DNA of 45,532 nucleotides from an uncultured Bacteroidales bacterium (GTDB lineage Bacteria; Bacteroidota; Bacteroidia; Bacteroidales; JBBRXJ01), in contig CAZSGN010000001.1 of assembly GCA_964606415.1 (NCBI GenBank), positions 1 through 45,532 on the forward strand. The letters run 5' to 3'. Under the pieces are notes generated by a model. That model searched no databases and had not been told where the DNA came from. It was given only the letters and a program-made list of their open reading frames with translations. Shown here piece by piece: positions 1,784-20,644 of the stretch; the stretch's first letter is position 1, and each line of letters starts with the position of its first letter. The position numbers and the translations under genes are program-made.

Positions 1784-3100
1784 ATGAAAATAGCTGTTGT
1801 TGGCACAGGATATGTAGGTTTGGTCACAGGAACATGCTTTTCCGAAACAGGCGTACACGTCACGTGCGTGGATATTAACGAGGAAAAAATCAACAATTTA
1901 AACCAGGGCATTATCCCGATCTATGAACCCGGACTGGAGACGATGATCGAGCATAATGTCAAAAAACAACGCCTGCATTTTTCAACAAGCCTTGGTGAGA
2001 GTATGCAAGACAGCCAGGCCATATTTATCTCTGTTGGCACCCCTCCTGATGAAGATGGTAGTGCAGATCTCAAACATGTGTTGAATGTTGCTGCCGAAAT
2101 AGGCCGTAACCTTGATCATTATATGGTTGTGGTAACCAAAAGCACAGTGCCAATAGGAACCGCCCGCAAAGTAAAACAAACAATCCAGGCAGAACTTGAT
2201 CATCGCGGTGCATCCGAAATCACCTTTGATGTAGCCTCAAACCCTGAGTTTCTAAAAGAAGGAAGTGCTATCGATGACTTTCTTAAACCAGATCGCATTG
2301 TAATAGGCGTAGAAACACCACGATCAGAAGAAACCTTGCGCAAACTATACAAACCCTTTTTGCTTAACAACCATCCCATTATATTCATGGATATTCCCTC
2401 CGCTGAAATGACTAAATACGCAGCTAACTCCATGCTCGCGACCAAAATTAGCTTTATGAATGAGATGGCCAATTTATGTGAAATCGTAGGAGCCAACATT
2501 AATTCTGTCCGAAAGGGAATAGGAAGCGATCCACGGATAGGCAATAAATTTATATATGCGGGAGCTGGTTATGGAGGCTCGTGCTTTCCAAAAGATGTGA
2601 AAGCATTAATCAATACCGCATGTGAGAATCAATACGATATGAAAATCCTAAAATCTGTTGAGGATGTCAATAATCGCCAGAAGGAAATAATCTTCAACAA
2701 ATTATACAATCATTTCGAAGGAAATATCAAAGGAAAACATTTTGCACTCTGGGGCCTTTCTTTCAAGCCAAACACGGACGATATGCGCGAAGCACCTTCC
2801 TTAACTATTATCGAAAAACTTTTAGAAGAAGGGGCTACAGTATGTGCTTACGACCCAATCGCGATGGAAGAAGCCAAAAAAATGATTGATGATAAAATTA
2901 CTTACAAAGAAAGCCAGTACGAAACCCTTAATAATGCTGATGCACTGATCGTTATAACCGAGTGGTCAGAATTCAGATTACCCGATTTTAATGAGATTGG
3001 TCAGAAACTCAATAACAAAGTCATCTTTGATGGCAGAAATATTTATGAGCCAAGGGATCTCGAGCCTCTTGGATTTAAATATTACGGTATCGGCCGATAA
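1784..3100 (+). CDS. ugd: UDP-glucose 6-dehydrogenase
   Basis: N-terminal Rossmann motif VVGTGYVGLVTG, catalytic GGSCFPKD motif, 438 aa. Confidence 0.93.
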   Translation: MKIAVVGTGYVGLVTGTCFSETGVHVTCVDINEEKINNLNQGIIPIYEPGLETMIEHNVKKQRLHFSTSLGESMQDSQAIFISVGTPPDEDGSADLKHVLNVAAEIGRNLDHYMVVVTKSTVPIGTARKVKQTIQAELDHRGASEITFDVASNPEFLKEGSAIDDFLKPDRIVIGVETPRSEETLRKLYKPFLLNNHPIIFMDIPSAEMTKYAANSMLATKISFMNEMANLCEIVGANINSVRKGIGSDPRIGNKFIYAGAGYGGSCFPKDVKALINTACENQYDMKILKSVEDVNNRQKEIIFNKLYNHFEGNIKGKHFALWGLSFKPNTDDMREAPSLTIIEKLLEEGATVCAYDPIAMEEAKKMIDDKITYKESQYETLNNADALIVITEWSEFRLPDFNEIGQKLNNKVIFDGRNIYEPRDLEPLGFKYYGIGR

Positions 3101-3217
3101 AATAACATTTGTCAATTAAGCCTTATTTGTTATATTAGAAACTTTCAATCGTGCGCAGATCTTTATGAAGAAATATATTAAAAAAATCGGCTTTATTGAC
3201 AGTATCAAAATAATATT

Positions 3218-4162
3218 ATGACAAAAAGAATTCTCGTGACAGGCGGCGCAGGCTTTATTGGCTCTCATCTTTGCGAAAAACTATTGGAAGAAGAAAATGA
3301 AGTGATATGCCTTGACAATTACTTCACAGGCAGTAAAGATAATATCCGTCATTTAATGGATAATAAATTTTTTGAAGCCATCAGGCATGATGTTACGATG
3401 CCTTATTACATTGAAGCAGACGAAATATATAACCTCGCATGCCCGGCTTCACCTGTCCATTACCAGTTCAATGCGATCAAAACCATAAAAACGTCCGTAA
3501 TGGGGGCTATCAATATGCTTGGACTAGCAAAAAGAGTAAAAGCAAAAATATTACAGGCCAGCACCAGTGAGGTTTATGGAGATCCGGAAGTCCATCCACA
3601 GGATGAATCTTATTGGGGTCACGTTAACCCAATTGGTAACCGCTCCTGTTATGATGAAGGAAAACGCTGTGCCGAATCTTTATTTATCAACTATCATAAA
3701 CAAAACCAGGTAAGAATTAAACTTGTTAGAATTTTTAACACCTATGGGCCGCGCATGTCTGTAAACGACGGAAGGGTCATATCCAATTTCATTGTACAGG
3801 CACTGAACAATGAAAACATCACCGTTTATGGTGACGGAAATCAAACACGGAGTTTCCAATTTGTAGATGATCTTGTTAAAGGACTAATGAAAAGCATGGA
3901 AACAAATGACGCATTCACCGGTCCGGTAAATTTAGGTAACCCAGGAGAATACAGCATTCTTGAGCTGGCAGAAAAAATCATCAAAATGACCCGTTCCCGT
4001 TCAAAAATTATTTATGAACCTTTACCCGAAGACGATCCGATTAAACGAAAACCTGACATTACTATTGCAAAAGAAAATCTGGATGATTGGCAACCAGTTG
4101 TGCCATTGGATGAAGGATTAGAAAAAACCATTTATTATTTTAAAAAGACACTGGCAAAATAA
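3218..4162 (+). CDS. uxs: UDP-glucuronate decarboxylase (UDP-xylose synthase)
   Basis: SDR fold [33 protein letters not shown]; typical UXS length of 314 aa. Confidence 0.88.
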
Positions 4163-4194
4163 AAACATCATTTTATTCCATTTAAAACGGCATT

Positions 4195-5073
4195 ATGAAA
4201 GGTATTATTCTGGCCGGCGGGTCCGGTACAAGACTTTATCCGCTAACAAAAAGCATTTCTAAACAAATCATCCCCATTTATGATAAGCCGATGATCTATT
4301 ACCCACTTTCCATCCTAATGCTCTCAGGGATCAAAGAGGTGCTGATTATTAGCACCCCGGAAGACCTTCCTCTTTTTAAAAAATTATTTGGTGATGGACA
4401 ACAACTGGGCATTTCAATTGAGTACGCAGAGCAACCAAAGCCGGAAGGGCTTGCTCAGGCTTTCCTGATCGGTGAAAATTTTATTCAGAATGAACCCACA
4501 TGCCTGATCCTTGGAGATAATATTTTTTATGGGCACGGATTAGGCGGCATATTAGAAAGAACAGCCCGATTAGATCAAGGAGCAACAGTTTTCGGATACT
4601 ATGTCAATGACCCTCATCGCTACGGAGTTGTAGCATTTGATAAAGAAGGTTCTGTTCTCAGCATTGAAGAAAAACCAGCAACGCCAAAATCAAATTACGC
4701 AGTAACCGGCTTATATTTTTATGATAACACGGTAGTCGAAAAAGCTAAAAAGCTAAAGCCTTCAGCCCGGGGAGAACTAGAGATCACAGATTTGAACAAA
4801 AAATATCTCGAAGAAGGATCATTACAAGTTGAACTTCTGGGAAGAGGAATGGCCTGGCTGGATACAGGGACACATGAGAGCCTCCTGGATGCTTCAAACT
4901 TTATCGAAACAATTGAAAAAAGACAGGGATTAAAAATATCATGTCTCGAAGAAATTGCTTATAAAAAAGGATTTATCAACAAAGAACAACTTTTGAAGTT
5001 GGCGGAACCGCTCAGAAAAAATCAATACGGGGAATACCTCCTTAAAGTAGCAGATTCCAAAAACTATTATTAA
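4195..5073 (+). CDS. rfbA: glucose-1-phosphate thymidylyltransferase
   Basis: [49 protein letters not shown]; 292 aa. Confidence 0.95.
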
Positions 5074-5153
5074 TCATGGTGCTTTGATGAAAAATACTTA
5101 AAAACACATTTAATTCTAATCGGACCAAGTAGAACTCTTTTAAACATATCTCT

Positions 5154-5705
5154 ATGAAAATTGAACCTACTTCTTTAAATAATGTTTACGTGCTATCGCC
5201 AAGAATATTTGAGGACGAACGGGGATATTTCTTCGAAAGCTACAATAAACGGGCACTGCATGAGGCTGGCATTGATTATGACTTTTTACAGGATAATCAA
5301 TCAAAGTCGGAGTATGGAGTCATAAGAGGGCTTCATTACCAGCAAAACCCAAATGCCCAAACAAAACTGGTAAGGGTTTTAGAAGGAGAGATTTTTGATG
5401 TCGCAGTAGATTTAAGGCCTTCTTCTTCCACTTTTGGCAAATGGTTCGGTATTAAACTCTCTGCAAAAAACAAAAAACAACTTTTGATTCCACAAGGGTT
5501 TGCCCATGGTTTTTCTGTCCTTTCAGCGAAAGCTATTGTTTTTTATAAATGTGATAATTACTATAGTCCTGAATCAGAACGTGGAATCATTCATAATGAT
5601 GCTGATTTGAATATTGACTGGTTAATACCAGAAGATAAAAGAATACTTTCAGATAAAGATCTAAATTACCCTGTTTTTAAAAAAGCAGATATTAATTATG
5701 AATAA
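5154..5705 (+). CDS. rfbC: dTDP-4-dehydrorhamnose 3,5-epimerase
   Basis: FEDERGYFFESY, GVIRGLHYQ, KLVRV..GEIFDVAVDLR, GFAHGF; 183 aa. Confidence 0.93.
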   Translation: MKIEPTSLNNVYVLSPRIFEDERGYFFESYNKRALHEAGIDYDFLQDNQSKSEYGVIRGLHYQQNPNAQTKLVRVLEGEIFDVAVDLRPSSSTFGKWFGIKLSAKNKKQLLIPQGFAHGFSVLSAKAIVFYKCDNYYSPESERGIIHNDADLNIDWLIPEDKRILSDKDLNYPVFKKADINYE

Positions 5706-5714
5706 AAATCAGCT

Positions 5715-6572
5715 ATGAAAATTCTGGTTACAGGAAGTAAAGGACAATTAGGAAGCGAAATGCGCCAACAAAGTTCAGATTCTTCCTATCATTTCATTTT
5801 TCACGATATAGACACCCTTGATATCACAGATATCAACCAATTGGATCAGGTGCTTGAAAATGAAAAACCGGATGTGATTATTAATTGTGCAGCTTATACC
5901 GCTGTTGACTTAGCAGAGCAAGAGAAAGAGAAAGCAGACCTGATCAATCACCTCGCCGTCAGGGATCTCAGTTTTCTTGCACGGGAACATAACATTAAAC
6001 TCATCCATATTTCCACAGATTATGTTTTTGACGGCAAACATTACTTGCCATACAAAGAAAATGATGCCCCCAAACCACAGTCAACTTATGGTTTTAGTAA
6101 GTTAAAAGGAGAATATGAGGTGCTAAATTACAAGCAAGGAATGATCATCCGCACTTCATGGCTTTATTCTTCTTTTGGGAATAACTTTGTTAAGACCATA
6201 CTCCGTCTCGCTGCTGAAAAAAATACACTGGATGTGGTTTTTGACCAGACAGGAAACCCAACTTATGCCAGGGATCTTGCTAACGCTCTTTTTACCATTA
6301 TACAAATGATTGAGAAAGGCAATTTTTTCAGAGGGATTTATCATTTTGCAAATGAAGGCGTTTGCAGTTGGTATGATTTTGCCCGGTCAATTATTGATCT
6401 AAAAGGTTATTCCACAAAAATCAACCCCGTTGATAGCAGTGCTTTTCCAAGACCAGCACCCCGCCCCCCTTACAGTGTTTTAGATAAATCCCATATCAAA
6501 AAGCAATTTAATATCTCTATTCCTTACTGGCGCGATAGCTTAAAAGAATGTATTAACAAAATTATGGATTGA
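5715..6572 (+). CDS. rfbD: dTDP-4-dehydrorhamnose reductase
   Basis: MKILVTGSKGQLG, INCAAYTAVD.AE, STDYVFDG, YG.SKL.GE; 285 aa. Confidence 0.9.
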   Translation: MKILVTGSKGQLGSEMRQQSSDSSYHFIFHDIDTLDITDINQLDQVLENEKPDVIINCAAYTAVDLAEQEKEKADLINHLAVRDLSFLAREHNIKLIHISTDYVFDGKHYLPYKENDAPKPQSTYGFSKLKGEYEVLNYKQGMIIRTSWLYSSFGNNFVKTILRLAAEKNTLDVVFDQTGNPTYARDLANALFTIIQMIEKGNFFRGIYHFANEGVCSWYDFARSIIDLKGYSTKINPVDSSAFPRPAPRPPYSVLDKSHIKKQFNISIPYWRDSLKECINKIMD

Positions 6573-6627
6573 TTTTTGTATAAATCATTTATTTTAGTCC
6601 TCAAAAAACAACTAAATACAAACAATT

Positions 6628-8364
6628 ATGTCTGAAGATTTGATGCTGGCTGTGCAGGAAAAAGCCCGGGAATGGCTCCACAGCAATCTGGAAGAAAAAG
6701 AGAAAGAGGAGATTAAAAACCTTATCGAGAATGACGAGAAAGCGTTAATAGAAGCCTTTTATAAAGATTTGGAATTTGGCACAGGCGGTTTAAGAGGCAT
6801 TATGGGCCTTGGCTCTAACAGAATCAATAAATATACCATTGGCATGGCCACCCAGGGCCTGGCTAATTATCTTATCAAACAATTTCCCGGAGAACCAGTG
6901 CATGTCGCTATTGCTTATGATTCCAGAATTAATAGCAGAACTTTTTCAGAAACGGCAGCAAAAATCCTCTCCGCAAATAACATCCATGTTTACCTCTTTG
7001 ATGATCTGCGCCCTACACCGGAACTTTCTTTTGCAATTCGTGAACTTAGCTGTAAAAGCGGCATTGTCATAACAGCGTCCCATAACCCAAAAGAATACAA
7101 TGGCTATAAGGTTTATTGGGAAGACGGTGGACAAATCATTGCTCCTCATGATAAAAATATCATTGCTGAAGTACAAGCCATCAAATCAATCAACGAAATC
7201 AAATTTAACGGTAATCCGGAAAAAATAAAATCAATCGGGGAAAATATAGATCAAATTTATCTTAACAAAATAAAATCATTATCTCTTTCTCCTGATATTA
7301 TAAAAAAGAACAAAGACCTGGGTATTGTTTTTACACCCATCCATGGAACAGGTGTTAAACTGGTTCCCGCTGCACTAAAACAAATTGGTTTTGAAAATAT
7401 TTATCATGTTCCCGAACAAGATCATCCGGACGGCAATTTTCCGACAGTACATTCTCCTAATCCGGAAGAAAATGCTGCACTTGACATGGCTATTGAAAAA
7501 GCCAAAAAAGAAGATGCTGACCTGGTAATGGCAACAGATCCGGATGGTGACAGGGTAGGTATTGCTGTCAAAAATAAAAAAGGAACATTCGTTTTACTAA
7601 ACGGCAACCAAATTGCCTCACTGTTGATTTATTACCTTCTCTCTCAATGGAGCAGGAAGGGGATGATCAAAGGAAAAGAATATATTGTTAAAACAATTGT
7701 AACTACTGAATTATTATCTGAAATAGCCAAAGACTTTAATGTCGAAATTCATGATGTACTGACTGGTTTTAAATATATCGCCGACAAAATTAAAACCCTC
7801 GAAGGCCAAAAGCATTTTATTGGAGGAGGAGAAGAGAGTTACGGTTATCTGATTGGTGATTTTGTAAGAGACAAAGATGCAGTCATCTCCTGTGCTTTTA
7901 TTGCTGAAACTGCTGCATGGGCAAAAGAACAAGATAAAACGCTTTACGAGCTTTTACTGGATATCTATCAAAAATATGGCCTTTTTGTTGAGGATTTGGT
8001 TTCTGTTGTAAAAAAAGGGAAAGCAGGCGAGGAAGAAATCCGGGAAATGATGAACAAATTCAGAAATACTCCACCCTCAACCCTTGCAGGATCGGATGTG
8101 GTACTTATTCACGATTACCAGAAAAGTAAAACAGTTGATATGATCAGTGATTTAAGGTATGATATCAATCTACCAAAGTCAAATGTTTTACAATTTGTCA
8201 CAAAAGACGGGGCTATTATTTCAGTTCGCCCATCAGGTACAGAACCAAAAATAAAATTTTATTTTAGTGTTCGTGGTGAATTAAATAATACCGAAGATTA
8301 TCTATCAGAAAGAGAAAACCGACTAAAACAAATCGAAAACATAAAAAAAGACCTGGGCATATAA
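6628..8364 (+). CDS. phosphoglucomutase/phosphomannomutase family phospho-sugar mutase
   Basis: Active-site TASHNP, metal loop DPDGDR, sugar loop GEESYG; 578 aa PgcA-like size. Confidence 0.88.
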   Translation: MSEDLMLAVQEKAREWLHSNLEEKEKEEIKNLIENDEKALIEAFYKDLEFGTGGLRGIMGLGSNRINKYTIGMATQGLANYLIKQFPGEPVHVAIAYDSRINSRTFSETAAKILSANNIHVYLFDDLRPTPELSFAIRELSCKSGIVITASHNPKEYNGYKVYWEDGGQIIAPHDKNIIAEVQAIKSINEIKFNGNPEKIKSIGENIDQIYLNKIKSLSLSPDIIKKNKDLGIVFTPIHGTGVKLVPAALKQIGFENIYHVPEQDHPDGNFPTVHSPNPEENAALDMAIEKAKKEDADLVMATDPDGDRVGIAVKNKKGTFVLLNGNQIASLLIYYLLSQWSRKGMIKGKEYIVKTIVTTELLSEIAKDFNVEIHDVLTGFKYIADKIKTLEGQKHFIGGGEESYGYLIGDFVRDKDAVISCAFIAETAAWAKEQDKTLYELLLDIYQKYGLFVEDLVSVVKKGKAGEEEIREMMNKFRNTPPSTLAGSDVVLIHDYQKSKTVDMISDLRYDINLPKSNVLQFVTKDGAIISVRPSGTEPKIKFYFSVRGELNNTEDYLSERENRLKQIENIKKDLGI

Positions 8365-8946: not shown

Positions 8947-8947
8947 A

Positions 8948-8977
8948 AAGAGGTTCCCAAAACAATGAGAACCTCTT
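8948..8977. terminator. 9-bp stem hairpin after yjbQ
   Basis: aagaggttc / gaacctctt with a 12-nt loop, directly after the yjbQ stop. The T-run is only on the minus-strand reading, so plus-strand termination efficiency is uncertain. Confidence 0.4.
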
Positions 8978-9354
8978 GTCCAGAAAAAGTTGGATTAACC
9001 TACGATCCAATTTTCAGGCAACAGCACATTTAATAAGTTAAGGTAATCAGAACAAAATATGTTCTATTCCTATAATGCAATGTTTTAATCAATACGATAT
9101 AATTATAAGAGCTTAACATTTTGAATCGTATTTGTTTGTTTATACTTTACTACATTTAATACAATAATAAGTAACCGTTGTCTGATAAAAACAATTCCAA
9201 AATAACCAATAAAAACATAAGGAATATTTGGCAGCTATACATCATAACAATAAGCGGGACTAAATATTAGAAATTCTTCCTTCCCGAAAACAGCCGAAAA
9301 AAGCAGGAAATATTATTGATACACCAGGAATTAATTCAGCAAAAAAGCTTTTTG

Positions 9355-10932
9355 TTAACGAAGAATGGTAATATTAATATGCTTTCCATCATCAAATATA
9401 GCCATATAACTACCCGTGGGCAATTTCTCTCCTCCCATGCCTGATCCATCCCAGTATAGTGGCCCCTCGAAAGGGCCGGCTACCTGTTGCCCATAGCGAT
9501 TATAAATTTTGACAGTGCCCTTCTTTTTAAAGAAATACTGATCTGCACCATCATCTGAATCGGGTGTAATAACAGGATGCTGACAACCATGATCTGGTTC
9601 TTTTATCTGGATAATGGTATCCAGCGGGAATTCACAACCCAGCTTATCAAGAATAGAAACAGCATATTTTCCTGCCGGAAGGCCTTTGTCATAGCCTGTA
9701 AATAAACGATCGCTTTCCGCTTCAATAAATTCAACAGAAAACGGAGGAATGCCCCCACTAATAGATGAAGTATCCAAAACAATTTGCCCATGCTCATTAC
9801 ATGTTACACCACGAACCGTTAATTCTATCTCAGACATATCCATAATACGGGGGTCAACTGATATGGTATCATAGAACTGACATCCTTGATTATCAATAAC
9901 ATCAACGAAAACTTCTCCCTTTTCCAAAACCTCCAGGCTATTATCATTTGCCATAGAATCATTATAAAAAAAATATTCATAAGGCCCTTCACCATGGATA
10001 ATAACAGAATGACAAGTATACTCCTTATCATAAGTAAAGGGTTCAATATCCGGGAAAGATAAGTGCAAAGTATCAAAATAATGACATCCAGCAATATCCC
10101 ATATTTCAACCCAATACATTCCTTCTTCTGTAAGAGTCCGGACCTGCCCGGCACCATTATCCCACCATCGGTAACTCTCAATGAAAGGCTGATCTACACT
10201 AACTGTTAACGTATCTGAAGGACATAATACCTGCTCATCTAACAAAAAAACATCATGTATTTTTTGCACATTAACATGGAATGAATCCTGTCTTAAGCAA
10301 AAATGATTATTATTAATAGAGATGGTATAATTTCCTGGCTTACTTTCGTAAAGATTCACCTTGCCAGTAAGAGAATCGATTTCCAGTCCGGGTTCTGCAA
10401 TAAACTCAAACGCACCTTCATAAAACTTTTCAAAATTAGCCAATGAATACTTCCCGTTATTTTCGCAAAATACAGAAGGATAATTAAAATTAACAGGGCT
10501 GGCTCTCAGCTCATTAATATATGTTTTATCGCCCGGGGCAAAATCAATACCTTCTGTGTCAAACTCATTAGCAAAAACATTTATCTCTGCCATCACGCAC
10601 TTCTCACTTTGATCATATACCAAAAAGATAACAGAATCCTGTTCCTGTAAACCACCATACACCCCCTCTGCTCCATAAGCATTAAGGCGAAGGGTGTCTT
10701 GCCCACGAAAGACAACTTTCCCAGCACATTGCAATTGAAAATTACTAAAATCAAAATAAAATACGCCTATCTTATCATTTTCCTGGATATATTCCACTCC
10801 GACCTGTACAGCCTCCGAGGGAATTAAGAGTGTATTGGTAATAGACGTAGAATCATAATCCCAGTTAATCTCTTGCCCATAAGAACCAAGAAACACAATA
10901 AAAAAAGATGATATGTAAAATAAAATTCTCAT
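9355..10932 (-). CDS. secreted Cys-rich repeat protein with T9SS type-B (gliding-motility CHU_C-like) C-terminal sorting domain
   Basis: Signal peptide MRILFYISSFFIVFLGSYGQ. SprB-repeat-like module (VTCNEHGQIVLD..GGIPPFSVEF..LPAGKYAVSILDKLGCE). C-terminus ITPDSDDGADQYFF..VKIYNRYGQQV..WDGSG..KLPTGSYMAIF..INITILR. Confidence 0.75.
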   Translation of the reverse strand: MRILFYISSFFIVFLGSYGQEINWDYDSTSITNTLLIPSEAVQVGVEYIQENDKIGVFYFDFSNFQLQCAGKVVFRGQDTLRLNAYGAEGVYGGLQEQDSVIFLVYDQSEKCVMAEINVFANEFDTEGIDFAPGDKTYINELRASPVNFNYPSVFCENNGKYSLANFEKFYEGAFEFIAEPGLEIDSLTGKVNLYESKPGNYTISINNNHFCLRQDSFHVNVQKIHDVFLLDEQVLCPSDTLTVSVDQPFIESYRWWDNGAGQVRTLTEEGMYWVEIWDIAGCHYFDTLHLSFPDIEPFTYDKEYTCHSVIIHGEGPYEYFFYNDSMANDNSLEVLEKGEVFVDVIDNQGCQFYDTISVDPRIMDMSEIELTVRGVTCNEHGQIVLDTSSISGGIPPFSVEFIEAESDRLFTGYDKGLPAGKYAVSILDKLGCEFPLDTIIQIKEPDHGCQHPVITPDSDDGADQYFFKKKGTVKIYNRYGQQVAGPFEGPLYWDGSGMGGEKLPTGSYMAIFDDGKHINITILR

Positions 10933-10978
10933 TGTATCATAAAATCTACATTCATTTAAAAAAAAAGTAACTATTTAA

Positions 10979-11866
10979 TCATCTTAAAGTATATCCTAAG
11001 GTAAATTCATAAGTGTTAATATTTAACTGCGAATTAGCCAGTGGAGTATGATAAGAAAAAGCCACCCGGCTCCTGCCGGACAAGAAATTAAAGTTCTCAA
11101 TTCCTGCAAAGAATAAAAATCCTGTTAAACGATGATAACCAGCCCCTGCCATAATTAATCCGTCAATACTGCTAATAATATCAAAATCAACATGCGCAGG
11201 TTGATCAATAAAATAACGATAAACCAATACAGGTTTAACCACAAACTCTTCAGAAACAAAAAACTTCCGGATTAAACTAAAGGTATAAAAACGTTTTAAT
11301 GCCATAGGTTCTAAAAAAGGGGTGAAGTCGGAATTCAAAAGTTGGTTGCCCGCAATACCTAAATGCCACAAGTCACTATAAAGCCAAATTCCCACATTTG
11401 CATCCATGCCGAAAACAGACCGATCTCCCGTTGTATAAGTCCCTTTCGCATGGAAATTAAAACCACCTGCTTCAATAGCACCTGCAAAAAACCACTCCGA
11501 AGAGACTTTTGTTCGCCACAAATACTTTCCATAAAACCGCGATGTACCAATATATACCCCTTCCTGATCTCCATAAAACCGAAATCCCAAACGATTTGAA
11601 GCGATTGTTTTTTCTTTTGGCCGTAATGGTATATCCATATTGATATTCAAAAAATAAGTGGTGAAATCTTTCCAATCCCCCCCATGCCGTTGATTACCAA
11701 TATCAACCCCCATGCCGGCGCCAGGAGCAGAACCTGCAGGATTAAATAAATCATAACAATTTGCCTGCTGATGAAAGAATACAGGATACCTGCTCATCTG
11801 AACCCCTTGCCCCATCACAGGCGACATCAGAAGAAAAAAGCATAGCAAAATCCATATATTCCTCAT
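10979..11866 (-). CDS. PorP/SprF family T9SS outer-membrane protein
   Basis: Signal peptide, QMSRY..FF....NPAGSA start, alternating beta-strand pattern, terminal YEFTLGYTLR. 295 aa, immediately upstream of a type-B cargo gene as in the sprB/sprF paradigm. Confidence 0.65.
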   Translation of the reverse strand: MRNIWILLCFFLLMSPVMGQGVQMSRYPVFFHQQANCYDLFNPAGSAPGAGMGVDIGNQRHGGDWKDFTTYFLNINMDIPLRPKEKTIASNRLGFRFYGDQEGVYIGTSRFYGKYLWRTKVSSEWFFAGAIEAGGFNFHAKGTYTTGDRSVFGMDANVGIWLYSDLWHLGIAGNQLLNSDFTPFLEPMALKRFYTFSLIRKFFVSEEFVVKPVLVYRYFIDQPAHVDFDIISSIDGLIMAGAGYHRLTGFLFFAGIENFNFLSGRSRVAFSYHTPLANSQLNINTYEFTLGYTLR

Positions 11867-11975
11867 CCAAAAAACAATTTCGTAGTAAAAGTATTAACTT
11901 CTTCCAGAATTTAAAAATATTTAATATTTCTTAGATATTAGTTACTTTTACACTTCTCTTTTGTATAAATAAAAA

Positions 11976-12569
11976 ATGAAACACCCTTTTAAAAAACAAC
12001 CTGCAGACAAGGAAATTCTGGAAAAGATCAGAAAAGGAGAGGATAATGAAGTATTGAATTATTTATATAAACAATCACTGCCAAAAATTAAACGATATAT
12101 TTTGGCTAACTCCGGACAGGAAGATGATGCATACGATGTTTTTCAGGAAGCGCTTATGGCCTTTTACCGCTATGTGAAGCAAAATAAATTCAAAGAACAA
12201 TATGATGTTGATGGTTTCCTATACTCAGTCAGCAGAAATCTTTGGATCAACAAAGCAAAAAAAGAAAAAAAAATGGTGCATCCTGAACATCCTAAAGAAG
12301 AAAATGACCCTGCTGATTCGGCAGAAGAAATGATGATTAGTGAAGAAAGAAGAAAAACGCTTCTGCAATTATTAGAAAAAACCGGGAGCAGATGCAAACA
12401 ATTGCTTCAATTATCATTTTTTTATGGTATGTCTCCTTCTGAAATATGTGAAAAAATGGGTTTTGCCAATGAAAATGCTGTTAAAACAAAAAAATACAAA
12501 TGCAAAGAAAAACTTGCGGAAATTATTCGAAGCAATGCCTCATACAGCCAATTATTAAAAAATGATTAA
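11976..12569 (+). CDS. RNA polymerase sigma-70 family (ECF-type) sigma factor
   Basis: Region 2 (DDAYDVFQEALMAFYRYV...DGFLYSVSRNLWINKAKK) and region 4 HTH (CKQLLQLSFFYGMSPSEICEKMGFANENAVKTKKYKCKEKL); 197 aa. Confidence 0.8.
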   Translation: MKHPFKKQPADKEILEKIRKGEDNEVLNYLYKQSLPKIKRYILANSGQEDDAYDVFQEALMAFYRYVKQNKFKEQYDVDGFLYSVSRNLWINKAKKEKKMVHPEHPKEENDPADSAEEMMISEERRKTLLQLLEKTGSRCKQLLQLSFFYGMSPSEICEKMGFANENAVKTKKYKCKEKLAEIIRSNASYSQLLKND

Positions 12570-13677
12570 TAAAGAACTGGACATATTCATTGAAAAATAT
12601 CTTTCAGGAGAACTCTCCCGCGAAGAGATAACCCATTTTGAACAGCTTCTTGAAAAAGATCCGGAATTCAAACAAGCGCTGGCAGAACAAAAACTGATCA
12701 AAGAAGCATCAATTGAACATGGCTTACAAGATATTAAAGAAAAACTGCAACAAATTCATCAAAAACATCAAAATAAAAAAAGTTCCCGGTTATTAAAAAA
12801 AATAATTGCCGTAAGTCTTATTGCCGGATTAGCAATTGGCAGTTATATCATATTTAACAGTCCACAAAAAAACAAAGAAAACACTTTTATCTACAAACAA
12901 ACCCAACCAGATACCCTCATCAACCAAAACAACCATACAGGTAAAGAAGAGCCAAATAAAACTAAAAATAATTCAGAGCCCCAAATTCAAGATGAAGATA
13001 TTAATAAAACACAAAAAAATGACCCGGTTAAAAATGAGCTTGACTCCCCCAAACCAAAGCAAAGAAATAAAGAGAGATTGCCTGTTCAATTAAACACCAA
13101 AGACCAGAAACAAATCAAAGAATTTAACAGCTCATTAAATACAAAAGATCTTGCTCTTAAATTGACTAACCCATGTAACAAGGCATTTAATATTGAATTA
13201 ATAACAAGCCCTTCGTGCTATGAAAATGCAAATGGCAAAATTATTTTAGTCAATAAAAATGAGACAGAAGTCCCCTACAAGATATTCAGGCAAGAAAAAA
13301 AATTCATTTTAGATGACAGTCTCATATATAATAATTTGAACCATGGAACCTATCACTTCAAAATCGAATCCATCAATAAATGTGACACAACAATCATAGT
13401 GCATGTTAATGGAAAAGACTGCCGTCCTTCTTTAAAATTCGCACCTGCCTATGGTGAAACAATAGATATTCCCTTAAAAAATGGTGCAAATGGTATTATT
13501 GTGATCAAAAGTAAAGGGGGAGAAATAATGGTGCAAGAATCGGTTAACAACGCTCCATTTTTTACATGGGATGGACGAGCAAGCTCGGGTGGTTATGTGC
13601 CTATGGGGGTTTATTTATATACCATCTCCTATGCAGACGGATCGAAGGAAAATGGTTTTATTACCGTTTTGCGCTAA
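12562..13677 (+). CDS. single-pass anti-sigma-like protein with extracytoplasmic SprB-like repeat and T9SS type-B C-terminal domain
   Basis: Its ATG overlaps the sigma gene stop by 8 nt. Residues 1-76 form a helical anti-sigma-like head (FIEKYLSGELSREEITHFEQLLEKDPEF). The only hydrophobic segment is residues 77-98, preceded by KKSSRLLKK. Residues 99-202 are a K/N/Q/P-rich linker. Residues 203-287 match a SprB-repeat pattern (SPSCYENANGKIILV..PYKIF..LNHGTYHFKIESINKCD). Residues 288-371 are CTD-like (FTWDGRASSGGYVPMGVYLYTI...GFITVLR). Confidence 0.6.
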   Translation: MINKELDIFIEKYLSGELSREEITHFEQLLEKDPEFKQALAEQKLIKEASIEHGLQDIKEKLQQIHQKHQNKKSSRLLKKIIAVSLIAGLAIGSYIIFNSPQKNKENTFIYKQTQPDTLINQNNHTGKEEPNKTKNNSEPQIQDEDINKTQKNDPVKNELDSPKPKQRNKERLPVQLNTKDQKQIKEFNSSLNTKDLALKLTNPCNKAFNIELITSPSCYENANGKIILVNKNETEVPYKIFRQEKKFILDDSLIYNNLNHGTYHFKIESINKCDTTIIVHVNGKDCRPSLKFAPAYGETIDIPLKNGANGIIVIKSKGGEIMVQESVNNAPFFTWDGRASSGGYVPMGVYLYTISYADGSKENGFITVLR

Positions 13678-13678
13678 A

Positions 13679-14368
13679 TTATTCACGATTAGGCGTAGAC
13701 GTAAACTCATAAGTATCCATGTTAAAAGCAAAAAGTCGCCCCAACTCTTTCCTTTGATTATAAACACAACCCCCGTCAATACGAATAACCTTATTATTTC
13801 CCTCAACTTTTTGATTAATAATAAACGATGCTGATTGCGGTGTATGCCCAACCAGGATATTACGCCCCTTTGTCCATGAAGGATCCGGTTGAAAATCACG
13901 AGTCCACAACATGGCATGCTTATCCTTCAAAGGATTATTCCTGTTGAACTCCAAACCTGCATGTACCAGGATATAATCATCCAGAATCCGGTAAAAATCC
14001 ATATCACGAATATAATCCAGATATTCCTGGGGAAATCGAGCAAGAATCTCTGTTCGGGAATAACTACCTGAAAGACCAAAACTTTGTAATGTTTTATCCC
14101 CTCCATTGGCCAACCATAAATCAAGTGAAGCATTGCCTGCCATCACATCAAGAAAAATCCCTTCATGATTTCCAAGCAATAACACCTGGATTATGCCTTC
14201 GCTGTCCAGCTTAAACAAATAATCAAGCACCCCCTTAACATCAGGCCCCCTGTCAAGATAATCACCCAGAAAGAACAACTGATCACCGGCACCAATTTTC
14301 AATTCCTCTTCTACCAAAAACTTTAGCGTTTTCAGACAACCATGAATATCACTAATCGCATACCTCAT
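13679..14368 (-). CDS. PPP-family metallophosphoesterase (Ser/Thr phosphatase / ApaH-like)
   Basis: Motifs ISDIHGC, GDYLDRGP, GNHE, VHAG, GHTP. Start moved to the ATG at 14368 (MRYAISDIHG). Confidence 0.8.
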   Translation of the reverse strand: MRYAISDIHGCLKTLKFLVEEELKIGAGDQLFFLGDYLDRGPDVKGVLDYLFKLDSEGIIQVLLLGNHEGIFLDVMAGNASLDLWLANGGDKTLQSFGLSGSYSRTEILARFPQEYLDYIRDMDFYRILDDYILVHAGLEFNRNNPLKDKHAMLWTRDFQPDPSWTKGRNILVGHTPQSASFIINQKVEGNNKVIRIDGGCVYNQRKELGRLFAFNMDTYEFTSTPNRE

Positions 14369-14462
14369 AAGCCACTCTGTCAATTTGACGCATTCACAAA
14401 TTTGGCAAGCAATTTGCATACCAAAACACACAATTTTTCAAGTTAATTAAAATTTTGATACA

Positions 14463-15086
14463 ATGGGAAAACAAAAGAAAGCGGAGGACAAAGAAAAAAC
14501 AAACAAAGACCAGGCAGAAACTAAAAATAACACAGCATCAAAAAAAGATTTAACTGATCAGGAAACAGATGACCAGGCTAAAATGGATCAGGAAGAGAAA
14601 GGGAATCCAGAAGAACCCAACAACGAAGAAAATACAAGCGAAGATCAAATAAAAAAGCTGGAAAAAGAACTTGAAAAATCAAAAGATCAGTATCTTCGTC
14701 TGGCTGCTGAATTTGATAATTATAAGAGGCGTACCTTAAACGAGAAGATGGAATTAACCAAAACTGCCGCCAGGGATATTCTCTTAGACCTTCTGCCAAT
14801 TATAGATGACTTTGACCGTGCTATTCATGCAATGGAAAAAGCAACAGGAGAGCCCGATGAAGGCCTGGTACTGATTTACAATAAATGCCTGGCGCTTCTT
14901 GAAAAAAACGGCGTTAAAGAAATTGAAGCCCTGCACCAGGACTTTAACACAGATGAACACGAAGCCATGACAAAAATTCCGGCTTCACAAGAAGACCTCA
15001 AAGGAAAAGTCATTGATGTGCTTGAAAAAGGATACTATTTGAATGACAAAATATTACGTTACGCGAAAGTCGTTGTAGGTGAATAA
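14463..15086 (+). CDS. grpE: nucleotide exchange factor GrpE
   Basis: [39 protein letters not shown]; low-complexity acidic N-terminal extension. Confidence 0.93.
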
Positions 15087-15109
15087 ATAAAAAACCGAAA
15101 CAAGTCAAT

Positions 15110-16261
15110 ATGTCTAAAAGAGATTATTACGAGATACTTGGTATTTCCCGCGAAGCAACAAAAGACGAGATAAAAAAAGCCTATCGCAAACAAGCCATCA
15201 AATACCATCCAGATAAAAATCCAGGCGATAAAGACGCTGAAGGGAAATTTAAAGAAGCCGCTGAAGCTTATGAAGTATTAAGCGATGATAACAAAAAAGC
15301 CCGGTACGATCGTTACGGCCACTCGGGCCTAGGTGGCCAAGGCGGTTTCGGAGGGGGTGGCGGTATGTCAATGGATGATATTTTTAGCCACTTCGGCGAT
15401 ATCTTTGGCGATAGTTTCGGTTTTGGTGGCTTTGGGGGCTTTGGTGGCGGAAGTTCCCGGAAAAGAACAAGGAAAGGATCCAATCTCAGGGTTAAAGTGA
15501 GATTAAACCTCAAAGAAATTGCAGAAGGGTGCCATAAAAAAATCAAAGTCAAAAAATATGTTTCCTGCGGGTCTTGTAATGGCACAGGTGCAGAAGATCA
15601 ATCTTCATTTACAGACTGCCATACCTGCCGGGGAACAGGTCAGGTAACTAAAGTAACAAACACCCTTCTGGGCCAAATGCAAACCTCATCTGTCTGCCCA
15701 AATTGTGGCGGAGAAGGGAAAATTATCCAAAAAAAATGCAAAACCTGTCACGGAGAAGGGATCGAGAAAAAAGACGAAGTGGTGCCTATTGATATCCCTG
15801 CAGGAGTAGCAGAAGGAATGCAATTAAGCGTTTCCGGAAAAGGAAATGCGGCAAGAAGAGGAGGTGTTCCCGGTGATTTAATACTGGTTGTTGAGGAAGA
15901 ACCACACAAAGAACTGATTCGTGATGGCAGTGATCTGGTATATAATTGCTTCCTCACATTCCCCCAGGCAACTTTAGGCGATCAAATTGAAGTACCTACC
16001 ATCGAAAGTAAAGTAAAAATTAAGATAGAACCTGGCACCCAATCAGGGAAAATTCTCAGACTTCGCGGCAAAGGCCTGCCAGACATCAATGGCTACGGGA
16101 AAGGTGACTTGTTGGTTCATATTAATGTCTGGGTGCCTAAAGAACTTAATAAAGAAGAAAAGAAAACCCTGGAAAATCTTAAAAATGCAGATAATTTCCA
16201 ACCAAACCCAACAGAACAAGAGAAAAACCTCTTCGAACGTATGAGGAATTATTTTAAATAA
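15110..16261 (+). CDS. dnaJ: molecular chaperone DnaJ
   Basis: J domain (DYYEILG...[16 protein letters not shown]), G/F-rich region, four CxxCxGxG zinc-finger repeats; 383 aa. Confidence 0.96.
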
Positions 16262-18337: not shown

Positions 18338-20644
18338 ATGAATAAACAGCTCTATTTCAAGAACATTTTCTTTTTTTATATTTTTCTTAGTACCTGTATG
18401 ATTTCCAATGGTCAATCAGCAATCGGAGAATGGCAAAACCATCTGCCCTTCAATAATATCAAACAGATTGTTGAAATCAAAGACAAAATATATGCATCCA
18501 CCCATGGCGGAGGCATTTTCTACCACAATAAAAAAGACAACAGCCTGCACCCACTAACCAAAGTAGAAGGATTAAATGATGTAGGAATCAGCACCTACAA
18601 TTATTACGATGACGCAAAAATATTAATGATTGGATACGAGAATGCCAATATTGACCTTATAACGGCAAAAGGGATCTATAATTTCCCGGATATCATGAAT
18701 AAAACATCTCTTCTTAATAAAACGATCTACGACATCTCTTTTTGGGGAGATTATGCTTATCTCTCCTGTGGCTTTGGTATCGTTGTCTTTGATTATGAAA
18801 AAAAAGAATTTAAAGAACAATATTATATTGGCGAAAACGGGCAAAGAATCAGTGTCTATGATCTTACGGCCGATGGAAAACATTTCTATGCAGCAACAGA
18901 AAATGGTCTTTTTAAAGCAGAAAAAAACAACACAAATCTTGTTGACTATCAAAACTGGCATAAAATTGTTTCGGGAATCCCCACAGGCAAATATACATCA
19001 ATAGAGAAAACTGATTCATTGATCATCGCCTGTCATCAAAATGAAAATCTTCCGGACAACATTGTTTTTTTAAAAAATAATAAATGGGATACATTATCCA
19101 CAGAAGAGTACATCAATTGTAAAAATATAACTTACTCACACAACAAAATCATTATTCAGTCCGACACCTTGATTAATATTTATAACCAACAATTGGATCT
19201 AATCACCAGTGACACCAATCACCGGATTAATGATGCAATTTATGATAAGGATGGGCAATTATGGTATGGGCATGAAAGCAAAGGGCTGTCTGTTGCAAAT
19301 GGAACAAAAAATAACATTTTTTTGAACGGTCCGGCTTACAACCAGAATATCGAGATTACTTCAATGGGCAGTACGGTCCTGGTAGCCGGAGACGTCATTC
19401 ATAAAGACAAAAATTATCTGAGAGGATATGGACTCTACCTCTACAGAAACGGAACATGGAAAAACTTCCTGTCACATCAGCCATTTCGGTCAAACTTCAG
19501 AAGTGTCGCTATTGACCCCCGGAATGAAACACATTTCTGGGGAGGTACCAGGGGATATGGTATCTCGGAATATAAAGACAACAAATTTGCTGAACATCAT
19601 GACAATCGAACAAGTGATATAGAATCAATTGCAGGTAATCCCTGGTATTTCAGTCGAGTAGAGGCGCTCAAATATGATCAGAGAAACAACCTGTGGTTTA
19701 CCGTTGACAGGGTTGAGAATCCTTTGTATGTATTTAAAAATAATAAAGAACTAATAAAATTCACATCACTGGATTATACTAAATTCGACAATCAAGAATT
19801 CGGCGATCTTGCCACCCAGGGCAACCATGTATGGTTGTTAATGAACCTAAACGACATTGGCATTTATGCCCTCAACCATAAAGGGACTATTGATGACGAG
19901 AATGATGATGAAGAGAAGTTCTTCAGCGTCTTCAATCAGGATGATAAAAAATTTGATGTATTAAATTGCATGACCACTGACCTGGACGGCAACATATGGA
20001 TAGGCACAGGCGAAGGTCCTGTTGTCTATTATAATCCTGATGATGTACACCATGATGATGATTATAAAGGATACCAAATAAAAATACCCCGTAATGACGG
20101 TTCGGGACTGGCGGATTATATGCTTGGAACAGAATCCATCAACTCAATTGCAGTAGATGGTGCTAACAGGAAATGGTTTGGCACGGAAGGATCGGGGGTA
20201 TACCTGTTTTCTGCAGACGGAAATGAACAACTACATCACTTTGACAAGGAAAACAGCCCTCTCCTTTCAAATCATATCAGAGATATCGGCATCAATGAAG
20301 AAAGCGGGGAAGTATTTTTTGGAACCGATAAAGGAATGGTTTCTTTCCGCGGAGATGCAACCAAAGCATATGATGATTTTGAAAACGTATATGCATATCC
20401 CAATCCTGTAAGATCGGATTACGACGGTTTAATTACTATAACAGGTCTTGCAAATGGCACAAACGTTAAAATTACTGATCTAGCAGGTCAAATTGTCTAC
20501 GAGCAAGATGCGATTGGGGGCCAGGTTAGTTGGGATGCTACCAATCCCGCCAATGAACGCATTCATTCTGGCATTTACCAGGTATATTGTGCAACCAAAA
20601 ACGGAGCCAAACACCTTACAACAAAAATTTTGTTTATCCAATAA
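18338..20644 (+). CDS. PorZ-like double beta-propeller protein with T9SS type-A C-terminal domain
   Basis: Signal peptide; Reg_prop-like repeats (NRKWFGTEGSGVYLF, GNIWIGTGEGPVVYY); C-terminal Por_Secre_tail pattern (YAYPNPV...ITITGL..NVKITDLAGQIVY....SGIYQVY....KILFIQ); 768 aa, the size of PorZ. Confidence 0.6.
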   Translation: MNKQLYFKNIFFFYIFLSTCMISNGQSAIGEWQNHLPFNNIKQIVEIKDKIYASTHGGGIFYHNKKDNSLHPLTKVEGLNDVGISTYNYYDDAKILMIGYENANIDLITAKGIYNFPDIMNKTSLLNKTIYDISFWGDYAYLSCGFGIVVFDYEKKEFKEQYYIGENGQRISVYDLTADGKHFYAATENGLFKAEKNNTNLVDYQNWHKIVSGIPTGKYTSIEKTDSLIIACHQNENLPDNIVFLKNNKWDTLSTEEYINCKNITYSHNKIIIQSDTLINIYNQQLDLITSDTNHRINDAIYDKDGQLWYGHESKGLSVANGTKNNIFLNGPAYNQNIEITSMGSTVLVAGDVIHKDKNYLRGYGLYLYRNGTWKNFLSHQPFRSNFRSVAIDPRNETHFWGGTRGYGISEYKDNKFAEHHDNRTSDIESIAGNPWYFSRVEALKYDQRNNLWFTVDRVENPLYVFKNNKELIKFTSLDYTKFDNQEFGDLATQGNHVWLLMNLNDIGIYALNHKGTIDDENDDEEKFFSVFNQDDKKFDVLNCMTTDLDGNIWIGTGEGPVVYYNPDDVHHDDDYKGYQIKIPRNDGSGLADYMLGTESINSIAVDGANRKWFGTEGSGVYLFSADGNEQLHHFDKENSPLLSNHIRDIGINEESGEVFFGTDKGMVSFRGDATKAYDDFENVYAYPNPVRSDYDGLITITGLANGTNVKITDLAGQIVYEQDAIGGQVSWDATNPANERIHSGIYQVYCATKNGAKHLTTKILFIQ

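Follow-up and report, generated by a model that had tools for sequence, protein, structure and literature searches.

A conserved four-gene cassette in Bacteroidota joins an ECF sigma factor and a putative anti-sigma factor with a type-B-CTD-like ectodomain to a PorP/SprF gene and a type IX secretion cargo gene

We here describe four adjacent genes in a 45,532-nt stretch of DNA from an uncultured Bacteroidales bacterium (contig CAZSGN010000001.1 of GenBank assembly GCA_964606415.1, positions 1 to 45,532), which is referred to below as the window. These are an extracytoplasmic function (ECF) sigma factor gene, the gene of a 371-residue protein that directly follows it, and, immediately upstream on the other strand, the genes of a PorP/SprF-family outer-membrane protein and of a type IX secretion system (T9SS) cargo protein whose C-terminal domain (CTD) is of type B. 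As judged from gene content and arrangement, sigma factor, anti-sigma factor, PorP/SprF and cargo are a self-contained four-gene cassette that occurs across Bacteroidota and that probably ties the production of a surface protein to the state of the type IX secretion and anchoring machinery. The original prediction, made from the letters of the window, had recognized the sigma factor, the coupled anti-sigma-like protein and a T9SS-type module in the ectodomain of the latter, and had missed the PorP/SprF and type-B cargo genes as well as a promoter-like motif that is common to the sigma and the cargo gene.

The cassette and its conservation

The sigma factor gene (11976-12569, plus strand) encodes a group 4 (ECF) protein of 197 residues. 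This identity, proposed earlier from the sequence, is confirmed by three models above their cut-offs, namely TIGR02937 (76.1 bits, cut-off 42.9), PF04542 (30.1, cut-off 24) and PF07638 (22.5, cut-off 21.1); PF08281 scores 18.6 bits, under its cut-off of 25.7, and all named ECF subfamily and equivalog models of NCBIfam are far under theirs (for example TIGR02985, 58 against 126, and NF058625, 45 against 130). The second open reading frame (ORF; 12562-13677, plus strand) starts inside the sigma gene, with its ATG at 12562-12564 and the sigma stop codon TAA at 12567-12569, so that the 8-nt overlap reported before is correct. Divergent from the sigma gene lies the PorP/SprF-family gene (10979-11866, minus strand), the 295-residue product of which matches PF11751 over its full length (70.7 bits, cut-off 22.3, E 2e-19) and TIGR03519 under its cut-off (60.2 against 90.55). 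It is followed by the T9SS type-B cargo gene (9355-10932, minus strand), which encodes 525 residues and matches PF13585 (CHU_C) at 29.0 bits (cut-off 27). The N-terminus of the cargo is like a signal peptide, residues 311-356 and 379-445 are SprB-like repeats, and the CTD spans residues 466-523; sub-profiles made from the family of the 371-residue protein also find the cargo (repeat profile, 5e-8; CTD profile, 2e-7), and a relative in its 90%-identity cluster bears the name 'gliding motility-associated C-terminal domain-containing protein'.

A homologue search with the sigma factor returned 84 proteins at E ≤ 1e-5, query included, and sigma-family loci in species-representative genomes number at least 504. 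From the sigma alignment, 80 species-representative genomes were drawn out of these loci, and 77 loci had enough sequence for analysis. Since the use of the sigma alignment biases such a survey to loci that hold a sigma gene, the survey was supplemented with three look-ups that started from the anti-sigma protein. In the survey, the protein encoded after the sigma gene carries a CTD-type ectodomain in 23 loci, of which 22 have a PorP/SprF gene no more than 7 kb away, the lone exception being at a contig end, as against one of 54 loci from sister clades of the sigma factor (Fisher p = 5e-17). Another CTD protein is present in 20 of these 23 loci. The look-ups from the anti-sigma side gave the same picture, with a sigma gene directly upstream and a divergent PorP/SprF gene in all three, and a CHU_C cargo in two, the third locus ending with its contig. 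The sigma-adjacent arrangement, which had been expected to recur in relatives, is hence conserved when seen from either side. All four genes are also present, with differing flanks, in loci found by way of the sigma factor, and the variation of the flanking genes indicates that the cassette moves as a unit.

Three layouts were found. In the window, the cargo and PorP/SprF genes are read in one direction and the sigma and anti-sigma genes in the other (cargo ← PorP ← / → sigma → anti-sigma); in a second layout the cargo follows the anti-sigma gene (PorP ← / → sigma → anti-sigma → cargo), and in a third all genes lie on one strand (PorP → cargo → sigma → anti-sigma). A cargo gene placed after the anti-sigma gene abuts it and belongs to the same operon. 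The N-terminal parts of the cargo proteins vary across loci (PKD, leucine-rich repeat/immunoglobulin (Ig) and others), which suggests that they are surface adhesin-like proteins.

The anti-sigma CTD is closer to the cargo CTD of its own locus than to cargo CTDs from elsewhere: with composition controlled for, the mean rank is 7.0, where 11 would be expected (permutation p = 0.0007). Mirror-tree correlations among sigma factor, N-terminal domain, CTD and PorP range from 0.33 to 0.68, a moderate co-variation that is expected if the cassette is inherited together and that is uninformative on specific contacts.

The family of the 371-residue protein was collected by an exhaustive search of representative proteins, a word-index search with the protein having returned only itself. 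The exhaustive search yielded 1162 proteins at E ≤ 1e-3, of which 544 were at E ≤ 1e-10; the top 150 matches are mostly of 355-418 residues and are aligned from about residue 9 to residue 371. Carriers belong to Cytophagales, Flavobacteriales, Sphingobacteriales, Saprospiraceae and Bacteroidales; one of them is a cultured strain, Cytophaga aurantiaca DSM 3654 (protein WP_018344358.1). Family members such as WP_018344358.1 and HVD96851.1 are labelled 'hypothetical protein' in RefSeq/GenBank. Some genomes contain two or three complete cassettes, every one of which has a PorP/SprF gene and a cargo gene to itself, as in one Cytophagaceae metagenome-assembled genome (MAG; loci L020 and L022) and one Cytophagales MAG (loci L033, L047 and L065), which suggests private, non-crosstalking circuits.

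An observation that concerns the sigma factor itself is that two cysteines of its region 4, C140 and C176 (in GERC..LL and YKCKQRL), are invariant in 28 sigma relatives of 39-57% identity; their conservation may point to a sigma factor that is itself sensitive to redox state or to metals.

A membrane-anchored protein resembling anti-sigma factors

By prediction, the product of the second ORF is a single-pass membrane protein. Its parts, all encoded on the plus strand, are a cytoplasmic N-terminal domain of three helices that resembles anti-sigma domains and has no zinc motif (residues 1-76; 12562-12789), a single transmembrane helix with N-in orientation (residues 79-99; 12796-12858), a low-complexity periplasmic tether (residues 100-204; 12859-13173) and a C-terminal head made of two domains.

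A full-length AlphaFold2 model, built with a 100-sequence family alignment, has confident helices at about residues 2-14, 20-32 and 34-97, the last of which runs unbroken through the membrane segment and has its cytoplasmic part at residues 34-73. Residues 1-76 modelled alone reach a predicted local distance difference test score (pLDDT) of 86.9; the AlphaFold2 values for the domain exceed 90, with helices at 3-14, 20-32 and 34-73. When this model was compared by Foldseek with 350,542 PDB chains, the nearest folds, at E-values that are not significant, were those of MucA from the AlgU-MucA complex (8z6g; ranks 1, 2 and 6, template modelling score 0.56-0.60, root-mean-square deviation 1.5-2.3 Å) and of RsiW from the SigW-RsiW complex (5wuq; ranks 9 and 16), the template modelling scores of the two taken together being 0.55-0.60. 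Hidden Markov models (HMMs) of anti-sigma factors match the 371-residue protein below their cut-offs (NF010501, E 0.005; NF052375, E 0.024), and weak matches of this kind recur among its relatives (NF052375 in 16 of 100, NF010501 in 11 and zf-HC2 in 2), none of the curated anti-sigma models of Pfam and NCBIfam being at cut-off for the 371-residue protein. As regards the zinc-binding anti-sigma motif (H-x3-C-x2-C), two or more cysteines within the first 60 residues were found in none of the 100 relatives.

The Kyte-Doolittle profile has a sole peak at residues 79-99, preceded by 76 hydrophilic residues, the N-terminus being without any hydrophobic stretch. KKSSRLLKK stands ahead of the helix, and lysine and arginine number seven in the 15 residues before it against three in the 15 after it; a single hydropathy peak near residue 80 is also seen in 127 of 142 relatives. 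The absence of a cleavable signal peptide and the presence of one membrane helix with a basic flank on its N-terminal side, both claimed in the original prediction, are thus upheld. A cleavable signal peptide was considered as the alternative and is ruled out by the topology, in which 76 hydrophilic residues come before a hydrophobic helix about 20 residues long.

The tether has a pLDDT of about 50 and no secondary structure, and the low-complexity linker predicted earlier is confirmed by the composition of residues 99-205, in which N (17), K (17), Q (11), P (9) and T (9) are abundant. Across 100 relatives at about 25% identity its length is 92-141 residues (median 106), the sequence itself is unconserved, and no conserved cleavage motif was seen in it in the family alignment. 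With about 105 residues, the tether, if extended, would be long enough to cross the periplasm.

In our HMM annotation of the genome loci, the N-terminal module and its helix directly follow the sigma gene in 63 of 77 cases, and the junctions between the two genes in the relatives examined are overlaps of 1-8 nt or short gaps. Behind the module and helix the ectodomain is exchangeable, being of the CTD type, a trypsin-like protease or tetratricopeptide repeat (TPR)-like. The CTD-type head is confined to the closest sigma clade, and the sister clades have trypsin-like protease or TPR-like ectodomains. Interchangeable ectodomains on a conserved module are the pattern expected of a sigma-binding module that has been joined to varied sensors. 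The coupling kept in relatives, the count of loci and the nearest folds (MucA and RsiW, at non-significant E-values) support the view, put forward in the original prediction, that the two genes act as a pair of ECF sigma factor and anti-sigma factor, in which the N-terminal module would bind the sigma factor.

Among the sister-clade loci, L035 (7592-8683), L055 (7559-8653) (Sphingobacterium, Chitinophaga), L049, L058 and L083 have the same module and helix and no PorP/SprF gene. Their trypsin-like serine protease ectodomains match PF13365 at 86-96 bits, and the others are TPR-like.

A C-terminal head of type-B CTD descent

The head begins with an SprB-repeat-like, Ig-like domain with four conserved cysteines (residues 205-288; 13174-13425, plus strand) and ends with a type-B-CTD-like domain (residues 289-371; 13426-13677, plus strand, stop codon included), which terminates in GFITVLR and lacks PNGDG. 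In the AlphaFold2 model, both are beta-sandwiches, the first at residues 205-288 with a pLDDT of 85-92 except in the loop 230-250, the second at about residues 290-371 with a pLDDT of 95-98. The cysteines at positions 205, 219, 274 and 287 are kept in 97-100 of 100 relatives. PF13573, the SprB repeat model, has no match at E ≤ 1 in the 371-residue protein and matches 51 of 100 relatives (best 1.9e-8), so that of the Cys-bracketed SprB-repeat module claimed for this protein the cysteines stand, and the repeat assignment is drawn from the relatives.

In a similar way, the claim of a type-B CTD is well founded for the family and falls short in the individual protein, where the match is under the cut-off; because of this sub-threshold match the assignment is solid only at the family level. 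Among 100 full-length relatives (about 25% identity), 94 match CHU_C at E ≤ 0.01 (best 7e-11) and 68 match TIGR04131 (best 8e-8), and models of type-A CTDs match few of them (Pfam, 6 of 100; NCBIfam, 24 of 100). A profile of the ectodomain was also aligned by hhalign with the last 170 residues of each of 25 co-located CTD-bearing proteins, with a probability of 99.7% and an E-value of 2e-26 over 141 columns; the alignment is collinear over both the SprB-like repeat and the CTD, and it extends to the terminal VTI.R and the last residue. The sequence (T/S)PNGDGxxD at the start of the domain is a hallmark of type-B CTDs. In the anti-sigma-type CTDs its place is taken by a signature of their own, F.P..GE.W..P. 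On these comparisons the head is of type-B CTD descent and is a divergent subtype rather than a standard type-B signal. A Foldseek search with the full-length model returned generic tandem Ig-like matches only, PorU, PorZ and GhpA among them, and is not diagnostic.

A promoter-like motif shared by the sigma and cargo genes

The regions upstream of the sigma genes share GGTTACTTTTT-N11-TTGTAGTA, in which a -35-like GGTTAC and a -10-like TGTA are separated by a 16-nt spacer in a layout of the ECF type. In the window, AGTTAC-N16-TGTATA (11938-11970, plus strand; exact pattern at 11941-11965) ends 6 nt before the sigma ATG, and from its sequence and position it is presumed to be an autoregulatory sigma promoter. 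A second copy, AGTTAC-N16-TGTAGA (10942-10974, minus strand; exact pattern at 10947-10971), lies 5 nt past the PorP/SprF stop codon and ends 10 nt ahead of the cargo ATG. With a position weight matrix (PWM), built without any site from the window and run over 91 kb, the cargo site ranked first (16.9 bits) and the sigma site second (14.8 bits); under the full PWM the sigma site scores 21.2 bits. For the exact pattern GTTAC-N16-TGTA, 0.11 occurrences are expected in the window and three are found, all of them within the cassette; three were reached in one of 100 shuffles.

A homologous motif is present upstream of the sigma gene in most relatives, and the position after PorP/SprF and before the cargo is also filled in L002, L006, L009, L010, L017, L087 and L089. 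Two of these loci, L087 and L089, are outside the training set of the PWM; the former has the motif at both positions and the latter at the site after PorP. The PorP gene itself is usually without the motif, L012 and L014 being exceptions. Sister sigma clades keep the -35-like half GGGTTAC upstream of their own genes and have a different -10-like half, as expected for an autoregulated ECF family. From the placement of these sites, the sigma factor would drive its own operon and the cargo gene, and PorP/SprF would be expressed independently.

The possibility that the motif is a housekeeping promoter of Bacteroidota (TAnnTTTG) was considered and rejected on the basis of its ECF-like -35/-10 layout, its 16-nt spacer and the -35 half shared with sister clades.

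The third exact GTTAC-N16-TGTA site of the window (9151-9175, minus strand; 14.4 bits) lies in the 408-nt noncoding gap (8947-9354) after the cargo gene. It stands 180 nt past the cargo stop codon and faces a convergent UPF0047 gene, and only a 29-residue ORF (9119-9030) follows it. Rfam has no matches in the window, so that no known RNA explains the site; it is possibly a remnant, or else the promoter of a small or antisense RNA. An additional copy of the motif, placed past the cargo gene and in front of other genes, was also noted in L001, L087 and L004/L007. In the last of these (a Cytophagaceae MAG), a 28-bit motif on the minus strand near position 3172 of L004 precedes the gene of a 1203-residue Reelin-repeat CHU_C protein that lies beyond the usual cargo, which indicates that the regulon can hold more than one type-B cargo.

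Genomic surroundings

The cassette of the window sits amid housekeeping genes and not in an obvious mobile element; in L089, a relaxase gene adjoins the cassette. The upstream flank (1784-8364) holds genes for UDP-glucose dehydrogenase, rmlABCD-like dTDP-rhamnose synthesis and phosphoglucomutase. On the other side, a convergent metallophosphatase gene (13679-14431, minus strand) ends directly beside the anti-sigma stop codon (13677), with no space for a terminator in between, and GrpE- and DnaJ-like ORFs, identified from their translations, follow at 14463-16261. A PorZ homologue, encoded at 18338-20644 on the plus strand, matches PF21544 with its N-terminal beta-propeller (133.6 bits) and has at residues 707-758 a weakly CTD-like tail; its presence indicates that the organism has a T9SS. 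The window also encodes a stand-alone type-B cargo of 541 residues (35440-37065, plus strand; CHU_C, 62.3 bits); neither a PorP/SprF nor a sigma gene adjoins it, and a family-9 glycosyltransferase gene comes next.

Proposed mechanism and alternatives

The reading of the whole cassette that we favour, and to which we give slightly more belief than doubt, is that the anti-sigma factor senses PorP/SprF and the state of the T9SS through its CTD-like head and thereby controls synthesis of the cargo. The architecture and its conservation are solid as features of sequence, and the steps themselves, that is sigma binding, contact between head and PorP, the sign of the signal and proteolysis, are ones that we infer. 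In such a scheme, the three-helix domain would hold the sigma factor at the inner membrane, and the tether would bring the cognate PorP/SprF and the T9SS, at the outer membrane, within reach of the CTD-like head. A free and working PorP/SprF would engage the head, upon which the anti-sigma factor could be inactivated by pulling, by proteolysis or by both, and the sigma factor would be released. Regulated proteolysis is the usual way in which single-pass anti-sigma factors are inactivated. The sigma factor would then recognize GGTTAC-N16-TGTA ahead of its own operon and of the cargo gene, usually not of porP/sprF; cargo would be made, its genuine CTD would fill the PorP/SprF anchor, and the signal would fall. 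Type-B CTD proteins have been reported to bind PorP-like proteins, as in the pairs PG1035-PorP and SprB-SprF (PMC9143113), and the CTD of PorA acts as a periplasmic regulatory ligand of PorY (PMC12152298). We further propose, with rather less assurance than we have in the reading as a whole, a route across the envelope in which the tethered CTD-like domain of the anti-sigma factor would read the occupancy or activity of its own PorP/SprF paralogue and the T9SS and set a dedicated sigma factor accordingly, with one private circuit for each pair of cargo and PorP and several such circuits in a genome.

Several results weigh against this reading of the cassette. For the N-terminal module, the fold matches to MucA and RsiW are not significant (E 0.9-6), because the domain is small, and a profile search of residues 1-76 against PDB sequences yielded no anti-sigma factor. 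For the head, PF13585 gives 21.6 bits (E 2.5e-4) on the 371-residue protein, under the cut-off of 27 and over HMM positions 46-86 only, and FlgD_ig, another Ig-like beta-sandwich family, scores about equally there; TIGR04131 has no match at E ≤ 1 in this protein. PNGDG, looked for with a strict regular expression, is present in none of the 100 anti-sigma-type members as against 12 of the 25 co-located CTD-bearing proteins, so that recognition of the head by PorP/SprF or the T9SS is not assured. The likeness between CTDs of the same locus is uneven over the loci and is not raised in the window itself (rank 15 of 21), where BLASTP aligns the anti-sigma factor with the cargo over the last 36 residues only (E 0.006). 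As to the promoter-like motif, the 14.8 and 16.9 bits of the two sites lie singly within the range of the best chance hit of a random window (95th percentile 17.4), which is why we base the motif evidence on position, strand and recurrence. Finally, the sequence does not fix the direction of the signal.

As a point about the history of this one locus, that short BLASTP alignment also leads us to reject a recent duplication within it.

The main alternative to a sensing role is that the head is a true T9SS substrate and that the protein forms an export checkpoint similar to FlgM, in which, with the T9SS and the cognate PorP/SprF at work, export of the head, following cleavage of the tether or bringing it about, would destroy the anti-sigma factor and free the sigma factor, cargo being produced only while secretion functions. 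This coupling of export to sigma release was what the original prediction had inferred. It would account for a head that is collinear with real cargo C-termini to the last residue, for the match of most relatives to type-B CTD models and for the nearly constant adjacency of a cognate PorP/SprF gene, and a tether of about 105 residues, if extended, could span the periplasm. However, the protein has a signal anchor and no cleavable signal peptide; the complete absence of PNGDG from the members examined and the unmatched first half of the CHU_C model in the window's protein suggest a specialised domain; and an uncut, tethered substrate would block the translocon, the linker being without a conserved cleavage motif. 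Because the head is not a standard type-B signal and the protein is membrane-anchored, export coupled to sigma release is one possible reading and not the best supported, and we regard it as unlikely. The missing PNGDG and the membrane anchor make us lean toward docking over export, and docking to, or engagement by, PorP/SprF would fit the genomic evidence at least as well as an export mechanism of the FlgM kind.

It could also be that the head is a periplasmic sensor or decoy for cargo, which recognizes or competes with unsecreted cargo or its handling factor and reports a backlog, without contact to PorP/SprF. The SprB-like repeat and CTD modules common to head and cargo would fit such a role, as would the closer likeness of CTDs in cis than in trans and the precedent of a CTD as periplasmic ligand in PorA-PorY (PMC12152298). 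On the other hand, the sigma-type motif precedes the cargo gene, so that a backlog would be amplified unless binding stabilises the anti-sigma factor, and both the near-obligate PorP/SprF neighbour and the conserved tether length would go unexplained; we therefore hold it to be improbable. A comparably small likelihood attaches to the view of an ordinary ECF sigma/anti-sigma pair whose Ig-like ectodomain senses an unrelated envelope cue, the CTD-like fold having been reused and PorP and cargo being a mere regulon. One would then readily understand the generic tandem Ig-like matches from Foldseek, the sub-threshold CTD match in the 371-residue protein and the unrelated ectodomains of the sister clades. 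It would not be expected, though, that the head retains the whole C-terminal unit of the cargo proteins by sequence (E 2e-26), terminal motif included, that the association with PorP/SprF is specific to the CTD-type clade (p = 5e-17) or that the CTD of the head tracks that of the cargo in cis. That the protein is no anti-sigma factor at all and is instead a surface or adhesin-like protein, tethered to the membrane, that only shares a transcript with the sigma gene, as the lack of any anti-sigma model at cut-off could suggest, is very improbable in view of the start/stop overlap or abutment kept in the relatives examined, the recurrence of the N-terminal module after sigma genes in 63 of 77 loci whatever the ectodomain, the best PDB folds, which are anti-sigma domains, and the cytoplasmic placement of the N-terminal region by topology.

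Novelty and significance

The four-gene arrangement appears to be previously undescribed. The original prediction knew of no T9SS-coupled anti-sigma factor, and this agrees with our search of the full-text literature, in which no description was found that joins an anti-sigma factor in this way to a type-B CTD, CHU_C, SprF/PorP or the T9SS, an earlier mention being not fully excluded. The main text of the paper on ECF re-classification (PMC7826278) makes no mention of the arrangement. The role of PorP/SprF paralogues as anchors of type-B cargo is only starting to be understood (PMC9143113).

The cassette offers a concrete and testable circuit in which a private sigma factor would be linked to a PorP/SprF paralogue and a sorting-type domain. 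A proposed function is gained for hundreds of 'hypothetical' proteins, together with a predicted promoter and regulon, and the head, as a natural CTD variant without PNGDG, may allow binding to be separated from export. To our knowledge, little is known outside Porphyromonas (PorXY-SigP) about how expression of T9SS cargo is matched to the machinery. Should the route across the envelope proposed above, with its private circuits, be true, it would amount to an unrecognised form of trans-envelope signalling in Bacteroidota, in which the occupancy or activity of a secretion site directly sets the synthesis of the matching surface protein.

Comparison with known systems

Class I anti-sigma factors such as RseA/MucA and RsiW resemble the 371-residue protein in that they have a helical N-terminal domain of about 75 residues and one N-in helix and are encoded directly after their sigma genes. 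They differ in that there is no significant sequence similarity, that the 371-residue protein has no zinc motif and that its periplasmic domain is unrelated, not being of the RseA_C or RsiW type.

With the SprB-SprF and PG1035-PorP class of T9SS substrates (PMC9143113), the 371-residue protein shares the proximity of its gene to a porP/sprF-like gene and the combination of an SprB-like repeat with a CTD that ends in ...VTI.R. The 525-residue cargo of the cassette is a regular member of this class. The 371-residue protein, in contrast, has a cytoplasmic domain and an anchor in place of a signal peptide, and its CTD is without PNGDG.

The PorA-PorY/PorX-SigP system of Porphyromonas gingivalis (PMC7712824, PMC12152298) provides a case of a T9SS CTD with a second, regulatory role, which feeds into an ECF sigma factor over T9SS-related genes. 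However, PorA is a soluble cargo protein with a type-A CTD and has a histidine kinase as its binding partner, and SigP has no cognate anti-sigma factor and is controlled by PorX, whereas in the cassette the CTD-like domain sits in the anti-sigma polypeptide itself and is of type-B descent.

FlgM and sigma-28 share with the cassette the concept of an anti-sigma factor that bears a secretion signal, by which secretion competence could free the sigma factor. There is no homology between the two and the secretion system is a different one (flagellar type III); FlgM is small, soluble and exported whole, whereas the anti-sigma factor of the cassette has 371 residues, is modular and is anchored in the inner membrane.

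The FecI-FecR-FecA system and the ECF/anti-sigma/SusC-like systems of Bacteroidota likewise combine an ECF sigma factor with a single-pass anti-sigma factor, have a regulon of adjacent genes for transport or surface functions and occur as several paralogous sets per genome, and in FecI-FecR-FecA, as presumed for the cassette, the periplasmic end of the anti-sigma factor would contact a dedicated outer-membrane beta-barrel encoded next door. No match to a FecR domain or a TonB-dependent receptor was found in the four cassette proteins with Pfam and NCBIfam. In the cassette, contact would be made between a type-B-CTD-like domain and a PorP/SprF barrel, and the regulated product is a secreted surface protein rather than an uptake system. 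Among the known systems, it is nonetheless FecA-FecR-FecI to which the cassette would come closest in logic, as an analogue only.

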